Positions 25,480 to 32,734 of a stretch of DNA of 38,104 nucleotides are shown here, piece after piece (within the stretch, counting starts at the first letter, position 1; each line of letters opens with the position of its first letter). The stretch covers positions 1 through 38,104 of the forward strand of contig CALVYM010000002.1 in the NCBI GenBank assembly GCA_944372205.1. The letters run 5' to 3'. A program made the position numbers and the translations under genes. The DNA comes from an uncultured Bacilli bacterium. GTDB taxonomy: Bacteria > Bacillota_I > Bacilli_A > RF39 > UBA660. The notes below the pieces were generated by a model, which was given only the letters and a program-made list of their open reading frames with translations, did not search any database and had not been told where the DNA came from.

Positions 25480-27096
25480 ATGAATATAGAATTATATAGT
25501 TACAAAAATTTAAGTTTAGGAACTAAAGAACTTATGAAATATGCTTGTTCAATTTATCAAACGATGTTAAATAAATCAAGTAATACTAAAGATACCATAA
25601 GAAGTGCTGTAATAGATTCTTATGGTAGTGAAGAAAAATTTGCTTATGCCCTGTATTTAGCATTTTTCTTTGCAGATAATAGTTGGGGAACAAAATTAAC
25701 ATCTTATAAAGATTTAAATATTGATGATTTATTGGGTTTTGTTTGTTTAAAAAAAGAGGATATTAAAATATTAGAAGAGAAAGAAATTGTTGAAATTTAT
25801 AAAAAATATTATCAAATTATAATAGCTAAAATTTCTAATAAATCAGAAGAAATTAAATTTATGAGTCCTGAAGTTCTTTATGGTTTATTTTATGAAATAT
25901 TTTGGGGTAATACAAAAATATTAGATGCTTTTGCTCAAAAATTTATGCCATATTTAAGTAGCTTTAAATATCATAAAAGTTTTGATGATGCCCATAATTA
26001 TGCCATTAAAAATGGTAGTTTAAAAGTACTTGATGAAATGGCTCATGAAGAGGCATCAACAATTACAGATTTAGTTGCTTTAGAAAAGAAAAATTGTATT
26101 AGTTTAAATAGTGATAAATTATGGACTTTGTTAGAAGATATCAAGAAAAAATTTGTTGGTCAAGAAGAAACAGTAGAAAATTTATTTTATAATATTGTTA
26201 ATAATTTATCTATTGCTCTTAATAATGGGGATGCTTCTAGTCGATCAATTATTTTTCTTGATGGTTCAACAGGAACGGGTAAAACAGCTATAACTAGTGC
26301 TATTTCAAGTGGATTAAATGTTCCTTTTGCAGCATCATCAATTACTAACTATTCAGCAACGGGTTATGTCGGTGGTAATATAACTGATACTTTGATTAGT
26401 TTATATAATAATGCTCATGGTAATTTAGAAAAGGCCAAAAGAGGCATAATTGTTTTTGATGAATTTGATAAATTAGCAATTAAAGGTAATAATTTAGAAA
26501 TGAAAAAAGCCGTTCAACAACAACTTCTAGACTTTTTAGGTGGTGGAAAATATTTTATAAATCCTAGTTCAACTGAAAAAAACATTGAGTTTGATACATC
26601 AAAGATTACTTTTGTTTGCCTTGGAGCCTTATCAGAATTAAGAGATGAATTGATTAATGTATCTAATCCTATTGGTTTTGAAAGGTATTTTGAAAGCACT
26701 CATGATACTTATGAGATAACTCCCGATGATTTAGTAAGAATTGGTTTAGAACGCGAATTAGTGGGAAGATTTAATACGTATTTACATACCAATGATTATA
26801 CTAAAGAAGATTTATATAAAATATTAACTGAATCATCAATTAGTCCATTAAAAACTTTTGAAGAATTAGTTAAAAATAACGGCAAAAAATTAGTAATCGG
26901 CGAGGGAGTTTTAGAAATTATTGTTGATGAAGCATATAAATTAAAAACTGGAGCTAGAAGTTTACAGACAATTGTAAATAGTATTAGAACAAAATATTTA
27001 AAAGAGATTTTAAGAAGTTCATCTGACACAATTTATTTAGATAAAGAAATAGTGTTAGAAATTACTGGTAATACTTTTAAGAGAATTAGAAGATAA
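25480..27096 (+). CDS. ClpX-paralog AAA+ unfoldase with a novel ~220-aa N-terminal domain (no zinc finger)
   Basis: From about aa 222 the protein is collinear with ClpX:
- FVGQEE
- Walker A GSTGTGKT
- pore-1 loop ATGYVGGN (nt 26362-26373)
- Walker B IIVFDEFDK
- QQQLLDFLGG
- IGF tripeptide NPIGFE (nt 26671-26679)
- LVGRF
- sensor-2 TGARSLQ

The N-terminal region has no CxxC pairs. Confidence 0.85.
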   Translation: MNIELYSYKNLSLGTKELMKYACSIYQTMLNKSSNTKDTIRSAVIDSYGSEEKFAYALYLAFFFADNSWGTKLTSYKDLNIDDLLGFVCLKKEDIKILEEKEIVEIYKKYYQIIIAKISNKSEEIKFMSPEVLYGLFYEIFWGNTKILDAFAQKFMPYLSSFKYHKSFDDAHNYAIKNGSLKVLDEMAHEEASTITDLVALEKKNCISLNSDKLWTLLEDIKKKFVGQEETVENLFYNIVNNLSIALNNGDASSRSIIFLDGSTGTGKTAITSAISSGLNVPFAASSITNYSATGYVGGNITDTLISLYNNAHGNLEKAKRGIIVFDEFDKLAIKGNNLEMKKAVQQQLLDFLGGGKYFINPSSTEKNIEFDTSKITFVCLGALSELRDELINVSNPIGFERYFESTHDTYEITPDDLVRIGLERELVGRFNTYLHTNDYTKEDLYKILTESSISPLKTFEELVKNNGKKLVIGEGVLEIIVDEAYKLKTGARSLQTIVNSIRTKYLKEILRSSSDTIYLDKEIVLEITGNTFKRIRR

Positions 27097-27152
27097 CTTC
27101 TTCTTTTTTAATGCATTTTATGATACAATTAGAGTAGTTAAGGAGATGCGTT

Positions 27153-27596
27153 ATGGATTATAATATTGATGATGTAAAAAGTGTATTAAGGGATAATGCA
27201 ATAAAATTTCCAGATAAGAAGATAATTTATAATTTATATTCGGTGTTAAGTAAATTGTATGATAATGATTTAACAAAATATGAAAACGATATATATATTA
27301 TTAATAATAAATTACTAACAGATTATGAAAGATTGGGATTAGAAATTGAAAGTTTATTAAAAAGAGTAAATGAGAACCAAAATAATGCAGTGGTTAGGGA
27401 AATATTAATTTTAATGAAACAAGCTTATGATAAGGGAAAATTATCTTCTAGTTTAATTGCTTATTTTAAAAAGTTGATAACAGAAATTCAAATTATTTTG
27501 GGAGAAGATATTACTTTTTATAGTGTTGCAGAAGAATTGTTTGATGAAAAGATGTTGAAATTAATTAAAGATAATAAAGAATATAAGGAACGTTGA
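27153..27596 (+). CDS. Hypothetical helical protein (147 aa)
   Basis: RBS AAGGAG. The stop is followed 1 nt later by the next ATG. No motif recognised. Confidence 0.55.
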   Translation: MDYNIDDVKSVLRDNAIKFPDKKIIYNLYSVLSKLYDNDLTKYENDIYIINNKLLTDYERLGLEIESLLKRVNENQNNAVVREILILMKQAYDKGKLSSSLIAYFKKLITEIQIILGEDITFYSVAEELFDEKMLKLIKDNKEYKER

Positions 27597-27597
27597 T

Positions 27598-31421: not shown

Positions 31422-31720
31422 TGTTACAATTTTTAAAAGATATAGGAATAAGTGATATTACTATATTAAAAATGATTAATAATAATTCTGAAGATATATT
31501 ATATGATTTAGAATGTGATCAAGTTAATTGTTTAGAAGTAATAAAGTATTTACAAGAATTAAATATTCAAGTAATTGATGATTTATTAATAAATGAAATT
31601 GGTATGTTTTTTAAAACTAAAGAATATTTAGCTAATAAATTTTCTAAATTTAATATATCTGAAATAGTTGATGATATTAATGATGATTATATAGCTATTG
31701 AATCAGTATTATATGATTGA
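31421..31720 (+). CDS. Hypothetical 99-aa protein with the same type of helical repeat
   Basis: FLKDIGISDITILKMINNNSEDIL and YLQELNIQVIDDLLINEIGMFF. The start overlaps the upstream stop, and the end overlaps the HD gene start. Confidence 0.5.
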   Translation: MLQFLKDIGISDITILKMINNNSEDILYDLECDQVNCLEVIKYLQELNIQVIDDLLINEIGMFFKTKEYLANKFSKFNISEIVDDINDDYIAIESVLYD

Positions 31721-32381
31721 TAAAGTATATAAAGAGGTTGAAAAATTACTTGCTAGTGATAATTCTGGTCATGGAATGGAGCATATAAATAGAGTTGTTA
31801 AATTAGCATGTATTTTTGCAGATAATGAGAGCGCTAATAAAGATATAGTTACTCTAATAGCATTGCTTCATGATGTAGATGATTACAAATTATTTGGGGA
31901 AACAAATTTAGCTAATGCTAAAGAAATCATGATCAAATGTAATATAGATGATAATACTAAAGAAATTATATTAAAAGCTATCTCTACAATTGGTTATAGT
32001 AAAAGACTATCTGGTATTACTCCAGAGTCTATTGAAGCAAAAGTTGTATCAGATGCTGATATGTGTGATGCTCTAGGAGCATCAGGTATTCTTAGAACTT
32101 ATGCTTATAGTAAAGAGCACAATAGACCATTTTTTGATAAAGACACATTCCCTAATCTAAATTTAACTGTTGATGATTATAAGAAGGGTTCTGCTAGTGG
32201 AGTAAATCATATATTTGAAAAAATATTAAGACTTCCAAAAATGATGTTAACAAAGTCTGGTAGAAAAGAAGCCATTAAAAGACAAAAGATAGTAGTAGAT
32301 TTTTTATTTAATTTATTTGAAGAGGAAGATGCTTTAAAATGGCGAACTTTTTTAATAAATTATATTAGAGATAATAATTAG
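31713..32381 (+). CDS. HD-domain metal-dependent phosphohydrolase
   Basis: H...HD...D ligands (GHGMEHINRV, ALLHDVDDYK, VVSDADMCDALG). ATG 31713 overlaps the upstream TGA (ATGATTGA); the track's TTG at 31698 is less likely. Confidence 0.85.
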   Translation: MIDKVYKEVEKLLASDNSGHGMEHINRVVKLACIFADNESANKDIVTLIALLHDVDDYKLFGETNLANAKEIMIKCNIDDNTKEIILKAISTIGYSKRLSGITPESIEAKVVSDADMCDALGASGILRTYAYSKEHNRPFFDKDTFPNLNLTVDDYKKGSASGVNHIFEKILRLPKMMLTKSGRKEAIKRQKIVVDFLFNLFEEEDALKWRTFLINYIRDNN

Positions 32382-32392
32382 AAGGAGCATAT

Positions 32393-32734
32393 ATGAATTT
32401 TAATATAAATAAAGTAAAAATAATTGTTAGTGTACCTACTAAAAATGTTGAAGAAGTTAGAGATGTAATTTGCGATGCTGGAGCAGGAGTAATAGGAAAT
32501 TATACTCATTGCTCTATGAGTACAAAATGTATAGGAACATTTAAACCAAATGAAAAAGCTAATCCTTTTATTGGAAAATCTAATCAGTTAGAATTTGTCC
32601 AAGAAGAAAAATTAGAGGTAATATGTGATGTTGGAAAGGTAAAAGAAGTACTTACAAAATTAAGGAGTGTTCACCCTTACGAAGAACCTGGTATTGATAT
32701 TATACCTTTATTAGATGAAAGTTATTTTGAATAA
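32393..32734 (+). CDS. COG3323/NIF3-insert-like PII-fold small protein
   Basis: VSVPTKNVEEVRDVICDAGAGVIGNYTHCS...GTFKP...ANPFIGK...HPYEEPGIDIIPL matches the conserved pattern of this family. RBS GAAGGAG. Confidence 0.65.
   Translation: MNFNINKVKIIVSVPTKNVEEVRDVICDAGAGVIGNYTHCSMSTKCIGTFKPNEKANPFIGKSNQLEFVQEEKLEVICDVGKVKEVLTKLRSVHPYEEPGIDIIPLLDESYFE

Follow-up and report, generated by a model that had tools for sequence, protein, structure and literature searches.

The locus and its seven genes

This analysis concerns seven adjacent genes in a stretch of 38,104 nucleotides (nt) from an uncultured Bacilli bacterium (RF39; UBA660), positions 1 to 38,104 of contig CALVYM010000002.1 (GenBank assembly GCA_944372205.1); the whole stretch is referred to here as the window. 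The genes encode a ClpX-like ATPase, four proteins that we call A, B, C and D, an HD protein and a PII-like protein. An initial annotation, made from the sequence alone, put all seven forward as one candidate undescribed multi-gene system, a description that holds for the four orphan genes A-D but not for the full set. It is very probable that the locus is a composite of two unrelated units, in which A-D constitutes an independent operon. For the explanation as a whole, a composite locus in which A-D encodes a clade-specific complex, we estimate a probability of roughly 0.7. All seven open reading frames (ORFs) are on the forward strand and tightly packed, and their coordinates were reproduced (lengths in amino acids, aa):

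25480-27096 (+): ClpX-like ATPase, 538 aa
27097-27152 (+): leader of the A-D cassette, the 56-nt gap between the ATPase gene and A
27153-27596 (+): A, 147 aa, first gene of the A-D operon
27598-29685 (+): B, 695 aa
29685-31421 (+): C, 578 aa
31421-31720 (+): D, 99 aa
31707-31712 (+): TATTAT, putative retained ATPase/HD spacer and right insertion junction, from the empty-site comparison
31713-32381 (+): HD protein, 222 aa from the ATG at 31713 (the longest ORF begins at a TTG at 31698)
32393-32734 (+): PII/CutA-like protein, 113 aa

The junctions were likewise recovered as first described: a 1-nt spacer at 27597 between A and B, 1-nt TAATG overlaps at 29685 and 31421, an overlap at 31713-31720 (ATGATTGA) in which the stop codon of D (TGA, 31718-31720) overlaps the HD start (ATG, 31713), an 11-nt spacer at 32382-32392, and the 56-nt gap at 27097-27152. 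A hairpin string, AGAAG-ATAA-CTTCT, lies at 27088-27101 across the ATPase stop codon. The leader begins with the 3' arm of this hairpin and a T-run (27097-27109), followed by an extended -10 string, TGATACAAT, at 27121-27129 and a ribosome-binding site (RBS), AAGGAG, at 27140-27145. The initial annotation had pointed to both the hairpin and the -10 string. On the one hand, both strings are present; on the other hand, generic scans support neither as a terminator or a promoter. The hairpin is weak (5 pairs, 2 of them G-C) and was not called by the terminator scan, and promoter-like sites are not in excess (56, versus 62 +/- 8 in shuffled sequence); such scans are uninformative in DNA with a G+C content (GC) of 24%.

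Distribution and genomic context of the A-D operon

The gene order A-B-C-D is kept at over 55 independent loci. With C as the query, an exhaustive profile search retrieved 538 cluster representatives (E<=1e-3), 140 of them at E<=1e-30, and almost all are full-length. The family is very divergent, and a word-indexed search therefore missed most of its members, returning only 4 clusters for B and 4 for C. Each of the four proteins has homologs across six divergent versions of the operon, of which D is the best conserved, with 40-55% identity. In loci L001-L008 the block encodes proteins of 159/657/576/101 aa, and B is 52% identical to B of the window. The other versions are 155/693/697/100 aa in L020, located after a YitT gene; 268/672/625/98 aa in L028; 162/671/600/98 aa in L029-L031, with genes for an AMP-binding enzyme and a hybrid kinase upstream in all three; and 154/706/588/99 aa in L032-L034, between RF-2/YitT and PrsW, UvrA, Lgt and WhiA. 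In L029, ThrRS, CCA-adding enzyme and DnaD genes are found downstream (the contigs of L030 and L031 stop after D). Homologs of A therefore have 154-162 aa (268 aa in L028) and those of B 657-706 aa in these versions. A metagenome scan added 51 further loci, where the A-B-C-D order with overlapping junctions recurs: D follows C, overlapping or abutting, in 44 of the 51, and A precedes B in most of them, as it does in all six divergent versions. This plan persists even in the most distant lineages (138/616/584/98, 140/572/584/98 and 139/664/611/98 aa), with a few variants. In all lineages the A-D junctions overlap or nearly abut (1 nt), and the GC of the loci is 21-30%. All four genes are conserved in length and are not polymorphic.

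The three remaining genes of the locus do not accompany this operon. No ClpX-like, HD or PII-like gene lies within 7 kb of it at any of the 51 metagenome loci, and none of these genes was found beside A-D in L001-L008, L020 or L028-L034, which were looked up individually. Those of the L001-L008 loci that extend past D have no HD or PII-like gene after the block, and L007 has no ATPase gene upstream. The HD and PII-like genes are linked to A-D only in near-identical strains of the window's bacterium, and outside these strains the proposed neighbourhood conservation of the ClpX paralogue with the 695- and 578-aa proteins is absent. The initial annotation had made a single seven-gene system depend on conservation of the genes as a block in other genomes; the genes are not co-conserved.

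What surrounds A-D elsewhere is mostly core genome. Among 99 flanking genes from 13 dereplicated lineages, ThrRS recurs in 3-4 lineages and the CCA-adding enzyme in 2, YitT is upstream in two divergent lineages, and RNA polymerase beta/beta', RRF, FtsK, PBP, ThyA and MetAP also occur. An association with known defence genes had been proposed as a check. The PADLOC matches among these 99 genes are scattered, mostly at one locus, and no defence neighbourhood recurs across the 13 lineages. Relatives of A-D were not found in viral contigs. A phage origin was considered and rejected on this account, the matches in BFVD being long-helix tape-measure noise.

The boundary between the two units can be read from the loci of the closest ATPase relatives, in which A-D is missing. 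In L025, whose ATPase is 76% identical to that of the window, TATTA separates the ATPase stop codon from the start of an HD gene with 81% identity. L026 and L027, with 78% identity in the ATPase and 83% in the upstream transglutaminase, share this stop-TATTA-ATGATTGATAAAGTATATAAAGAGG junction, after which only degraded remnants of the HD and PII-like genes follow. At the other end of A-D, the window has ...CAG TATTAT ATGATTGATAAAGTATATAAAGAGG, with TATTAT just before the HD ATG. The match of the window to L025 and L026 stops at the ATPase stop codon, and from there the leader of A in L001-L008 takes over, sharing ...TCTTCTTTTTTT...TGTGATAAAATTA... with the window. From these alignments, A-D with its own leader (approximately 27097-31706, 4.6 kb) sits in the 5-nt spacer of an older ATPase/HD/PII-like string, with the 5' end of the leader as the probable left junction and TATTAT as the probable right one. 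Parsimony favours an insertion in the window's lineage, since all other A-D lineages carry the operon in a different place. Within A-D, Pfam detects no recombinase domain, and the cassette ends carry no terminal repeats, the only repeats across 26900-31900 being AT-rich and due to chance. A transposon or integrative element was accordingly rejected as a description of A-D: integrase, transposase and terminal repeats are all missing.

Two side observations concern these junctions. Just upstream of the L001-type leader, L007 has a segment (1790-1815, GTTAAAAGAATTTTAAAAGCCAAC) similar to the final codons of the ATPase gene in the window (TTTAAGAGAATTAGAAGATAAC, 27075-27100); this could be AT-rich chance or the footprint of a shared ancestral junction. 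In L026 (3700-3809) and L027 (2480-2611), an apparent tRNA gene on the opposite strand follows the HD/PII-like remnants and ends the locus of that lineage. tRNA genes are common integration hotspots.

The fate of the two units differs among close relatives. Five independently assembled sister strains, 94-96% identical to the window at the nucleotide level, all keep A-D intact. In these same five assemblies (L010-L013 and L021) the ATPase gene has a 1-nt deletion that shifts the frame at about codon 84, and in four of them (L010, L011, L013 and L021) a 31-nt deletion in the HD gene removes the catalytic motif LHDVDD. The window, L009, L022 and L023 retain an intact ATPase gene. Ratios of nonsynonymous to synonymous substitution rates (dN/dS) against the sister strains are 0.07-0.11 for C and 0.2-0.3 for A and B, and 0.07-0.32 overall, which means purifying selection.

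We picture two units with separate histories. The first would be the older string of ClpX paralogue, HD phosphohydrolase and PII-like gene, an accessory set that seems to be decaying in the window's lineage. The second would be a self-contained A-B-C-D operon, with its own leader, promoter-like -10 and RBS, that was inserted into the ATPase/HD spacer; it is probably ancient within a clade of uncultured gut Bacilli (21-30% GC), where it has been inherited mostly vertically. The tight packing of the seven genes is, on this account, a by-product of insertion into an operon spacer and no evidence of joint function. A seven-gene defence-like system produced in this manner is not worth pursuing, and the locus exemplifies that tight gene packing alone is weak evidence for joint function.

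The A-D proteins and their possible role

As the initial annotation stated, the four middle proteins are charged and mostly helical by prediction and show no enzymatic motif. None of A-D matched Pfam, NCBIfam, PHROGs or PADLOC, PDB profile searches with each of the four returned nothing, and Foldseek comparisons with PDB and BFVD gave nothing significant. Lysine and arginine make up 7-16% of these proteins, and aspartate and glutamate 17-20%. Hydrophobic or transmembrane segments are absent from all four, and B, C and D are acidic, with isoelectric points (pI) of 4-5.5. A-D is thus unassignable to any known family or system, and it is new in that sense only. For A, a YfbU assignment was rejected, as it comes from a single sub-threshold match in 1 of 6 homologs.

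The AlphaFold model of B has confident helices at residues 1-135 and 330-450 and a low-confidence C-terminal domain (predicted local distance difference test, pLDDT, 59 overall). The C-terminal region, approximately residues 465-625, is a conserved alpha/beta domain in which the motif R..(K/R)..G..R..Y/F...N...L(V/I)...Y.K...F..DF is kept in all six versions. The initial annotation had seen a RelE/ParE-like signature here, and its motif, RRLRNGDIRFGFITV, is indeed present and conserved: the pattern R-x-(K/R)-x-G-x-x-R-x-x-Y/F followed by a strand, with a second hydrophobic strand, recalls the strands of RelE/ParE. Unlike those toxins, the domain ends a conserved protein of 650-700 aa and lacks an antitoxin-like partner; the model of this part is unreliable. 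When pieces of the C terminus from three versions of B were scanned against Pfam at E<=10, no toxin family matched, and a PDB profile search with the C-terminal domain gave 0 matches. At residues 454-608, where pLDDT is below 50, Foldseek finds no toxin match. The RelE/ParE assignment was rejected on the Pfam and PDB results. More generally, Pfam scans detected no toxin or antitoxin family in any A-D homolog. A likeness of B to LXG/Lap proteins of type VII secretion is noise (Foldseek probability 0.41, E=5.4), and type VII secretion genes are missing from the vicinity.

C is composed of an N-terminal coiled coil, helical repeats at residues 190-300, a Gly-rich linker at approximately 315-330 and a conserved C-terminal domain with the motif YNFxGxxISRxKVLRxY; residues E400, Y516, S524 and K527 are invariant. 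Its model has a pLDDT of 68 overall and of 80-93 at residues 190-300, and the N-terminal coiled coil is also confident. Helical repeats of about 30 aa had been proposed for two proteins of the locus; they are plausible for residues 190-300 of C and were not confirmed otherwise. In L020, the C homolog (P0008, 3546-5639, 697 aa) carries the conserved C-terminal module as a tandem duplication (...YxFxGVIIxRxxVLxxY... twice), and the duplication suggests that this module forms a domain of its own. By hhalign, B and C show a weak similarity in their N-terminal regions (probability 33%, E=4.6e-4). D is very acidic.

The overlapping or nearly abutting junctions lead us to expect that A-D is translationally coupled and its products made in fixed stoichiometry. 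These would form one soluble, cytoplasmic, non-enzymatic complex, in which B and C may pair through their weakly similar N-terminal coiled coils while D binds C and A binds B. Its role would be that of a clade-specific housekeeping scaffold or regulator. For A-D, we lean towards a housekeeping complex, and the lineage-specific housekeeping complex that the initial annotation named as its fallback is the description that fits best. More tentatively, one can imagine that the four subunits have new folds and form a cytoplasmic complex throughout the clade, for instance a scaffold that is cytoskeletal or associated with ribosome or chromosome and unique to gut Bacilli with reduced genomes; this is possible rather than expected. 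The four families match no library, yet they form one translationally coupled operon over hundreds of divergent low-GC lineages of gut Bacilli. Operons of this kind are where the lineage-specific cell biology of uncultured bacteria hides, and A-D is one of many conserved dark-matter operons, though an unusually well-defined and tractable one.

Several points weigh against this picture. The function proposed for A-D has no support from homologs (Pfam, NCBIfam, PHROGs, PADLOC, PDB) or from a significant fold match, and the structural models are mediocre, with pLDDT 59 for B and 68 for C. The empty junctions might also have arisen by a precise deletion of A-D in the lineage of L025/L026 rather than by insertion in that of the window, which is less parsimonious. 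With so weak a hairpin, transcription could also read through from the ATPase gene into A-D. The region of the window is strain-variable, with mosaic divergence and pseudogenes, and it is one of two lineages in which the context of the operon is plastic, the other being L001-L008, with two left flanks and an IS30-like fragment. In one locus (L068, 3854-8337) A-B-C-D is shattered into at least 14 ORF fragments and looks like a pseudo-operon, unless the assembly is poor. The plastic contexts and the shattered copy mean that the operon is neither immobile nor indispensable everywhere.

The plasticity of the L001-type block takes the following form. An IS30-like transposase fragment (...TDNGTEF...) is located directly downstream (L001 4879-5157 on the reverse strand, L006 4623-5066, and also L002-L005 and L008). 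Beyond it the flanks vary by assembly, consisting of LtaS/LytR, three unassigned genes or a HATPase_c_3 gene. Most of these contigs end 100-250 nt upstream of A, and two different left flanks are seen. This suggests repeat-mediated rearrangement around the block.

These same observations are what speaks for the best surviving alternative, that A-D by itself is a mobile cassette for conflict or addiction without recognisable mobility genes, for instance a new defence or toxin-antitoxin-like module, in which the C-terminal domain of B would be a cryptic nuclease-like effector. It would account for the relocation into an operon spacer in the window's lineage, for the variable flanks, IS30-like fragment and many upstream contig breaks of L001-L008 (with a Mob_Pre relaxase 7 kb from the operon in L001), for the decayed copy in L068, for the conserved basic motif in B and for the strain variability of the window region with its defence candidate. 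Yet most lineages hold the operon between core genes, with recurrent ThrRS or YitT synteny; defence neighbours do not recur; viral contigs lack it; the four genes are length-conserved rather than polymorphic; and neither integrase, transposase and terminal repeats nor any toxin or immunity family was detected. We consider this alternative unlikely. A more specific version, in which A-D is a spacer-hopping cassette and a new conflict or addiction module of four unrecognised folds, with an effector at the C terminus of B, and in which its arrival broke the ClpX-paralogue/HD operon, which then decayed, strikes us as rather improbable.

A second alternative takes its lead from structure and would make A-D a nucleic-acid-binding factor, with C (and D) built of mTERF-like repeats, acting on rRNA, tRNA or transcription. 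The top Foldseek match of C is MTERF4 (E=1.4, probability 0.63), which is not significant, and the Pfam mTERF model matches 1 of 79 members of the C family at E=0.008 and does not match C of the window. Residues 190-300 of C are confidently predicted as stacked short helical repeats, as in mTERF proteins (human MTERF4, PDB 7o9k), and the reading would explain why translation-related genes recur among the neighbours (ThrRS, CCA-adding enzyme, RF-2, RRF and also RNA polymerase). Against it, such functions are expected in any core region, C carries coiled-coil and C-terminal domains in addition to the repeats, and the strong acidity of B, C and D (pI 4-5.5) is unusual among proteins that bind nucleic acids. 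None of the mTERF matches is significant in sequence or structure, and hhalign detects no similarity between C and D. An mTERF identity for C and D was rejected for these reasons, and we regard the nucleic-acid role as quite unlikely.

A third alternative accepts the insertion and supposes a secondary recruitment, in which the ClpX paralogue came to regulate A-D afterwards in the window's strain, for example through read-through combined with degradation of a subunit. The gap of only 56 nt, the hairpin that the terminator scan did not call and the intact ATPase genes of the window, L009, L022 and L023 are compatible with this. The five sister assemblies, however, pair a frameshifted ATPase gene with an intact A-D operon under purifying selection, and A-D brings its own promoter-like element and RBS, conserved in another lineage. 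Such recruitment is very unlikely.

Finally, a conflict system of all seven genes, of the toxin-antitoxin or abortive-infection type, in which the unfoldase degrades an inhibitor and so frees a RelE-like or HD effector, would draw on the shared strand and tight packing, on an ATPase family with a PHROG relative and members on mobilisable elements, on a PADLOC candidate (PDC-S26) just downstream and on the superficially RelE-like motif of B, but it is barely credible given the separation of the flanking genes from A-D in all 51 metagenome loci and in the other lineages looked up individually, the empty sites that join ATPase straight to HD, the inactivation of ATPase and HD while A-D persists, and the lack of a specific PADLOC match for any of the seven genes or of a RelE/ParE profile match. 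The combination of unfoldase, toxin-like domain and phosphohydrolase that the initial annotation proposed is left unsupported by the PADLOC and profile results, and a literature search found no described ClpX-like defence system of such a type. We return to two units, an accessory ATPase/HD/PII-like string and an independent A-D operon, in describing the remaining genes.

The flanking genes and the surrounding region

The assignments of the ClpX-like, HD and PII-like proteins in the initial annotation stand in Pfam, NCBIfam and PDB comparisons: the HD and PII-like proteins are ordinary members of their families, and the ATPase is a variant of ClpX. The ATPase has a complete ClpX-type AAA+ module after an N-terminal domain of about 200 aa. 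Its residues 225-504 align with the whole AAA+ module of E. coli ClpX (PDB 6wr2), including Walker A (GSTGTGKT), the pore loop (GYVG), Walker B (IVFDEFDK), the IGF loop (NPIGFERY) and sensor-2 (TGARSL). The IGF loop of ClpX docks ClpP. The protein shares these motor motifs with E. coli ClpX (6wr2/3hws); where ClpX has an N-terminal C4 zinc-binding domain, its residues 1-200 match no Pfam family and contain no zinc-finger domain. Its NCBIfam ClpX scores, 165 and 146 bits, compare with equivalog cutoffs of 359 and 371. Since all ClpX motor motifs including the IGF loop are present and the N-terminal domain is different, the ATPase probably acts as an unfoldase that depends on ClpP and has a substrate or adaptor specificity of its own.

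This protein belongs to a separate paralogue family of at least 684 members, about 560 aa long and alignable end to end at 43-47% identity. Its members are usually paired with a gene for a protein of about 118 aa, and in three independent lineages that gene starts 1 nt after the ATPase homolog, in the place that A-D takes in the window (L014, 8001-9984; L016, 8001-10041; L018/L019, 8001-10047). The partner is conserved (MxFEYNGNLLEDxRINLVA...) and has no Pfam match; the window's ATPase copy lacks it. A was rejected as a counterpart of this partner, BLASTP detecting no similarity. In L018 and L019 the pair is within a mobilisable element that also encodes a serine recombinase and a Mob_Pre relaxase. 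The ATPase paralogue and its ~118-aa partner look like an undescribed two-gene module, and this large family may merit study. The ATPase is not part of the A-D operon.

The suggested PADLOC check gave no specific match for any of the seven genes. The ATPase alone has weak, generic AAA+ P-loop matches (E 1e-5 to 1e-3), to IetAS, the CBASS TRIP13 accessory protein and mad8, all confined to the P-loop region. The partner genes of those systems (the IetS protease and the CBASS genes) are absent here, and A-D has no PADLOC match.

The HD protein scores 28.2 bits with Pfam PF01966 (cutoff 22) and resembles the YedJ-like phosphohydrolases (NCBIfam PRK10119, 2.4e-17), although it remains below the equivalog cutoff (63 versus 286 bits). 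It carries the H...HD metal-binding motif, and LHDVDD is encoded at approximately 31850-31880. The 113-aa protein corresponds to the PII/CutA-like insert domain of NIF3/YqfO in free-standing form; it matches residues 162-261 of PDB 2gx8 (100 residues, E=1.3e-24) and also 2nyd/3lnl (1e-12). It is thus homologous to the insert domain of 2gx8 but stands alone.

The GC of the window is approximately 24%, and scans of the window detected no RNA genes (0 Rfam and 0 tRNA matches). The 22 kb upstream of the locus have the appearance of an ordinary low-GC Firmicute chromosome, with a two-component system, ABC transporters, a Cu-ATPase and RarA. Around the locus, synonymous divergence across window positions 23694-34644 against L010, L012, L022 and L023 is mosaic: about 0.33 for the transglutaminase gene, 0.08-0.20 for the ATPase gene, 0.01-0.07 for B-D, about 0 for the PII-like gene and up to 0.25 for the PDC-S26-like gene. 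This mosaic indicates recombination between strains across the region. Further strain differences were noted at window positions 21287-22002 and 22552-23147. In the window, a YjbR/MmcQ-like gene has suffered a frameshift and truncation, leaving ORFs of 159 and 101 aa as compared with 331 aa in L010. Genes for a helix-turn-helix regulator, a DUF2000 protein and a 386-aa protein are present in L010/L011 and missing from the window.

Downstream of the studied genes, at 32835-34644, are two ORFs that overlap by 14 nt. The first encodes a 185-aa protein with only the C-terminal (RecA-like) domain of DnaB, and its counterpart in L011 is split into 45 and 96 aa. The product of the second, 421 aa long, is a match to PADLOC candidate PDC-S26 (E=1.4e-16). 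The pair may be a small defence candidate beside the studied region.

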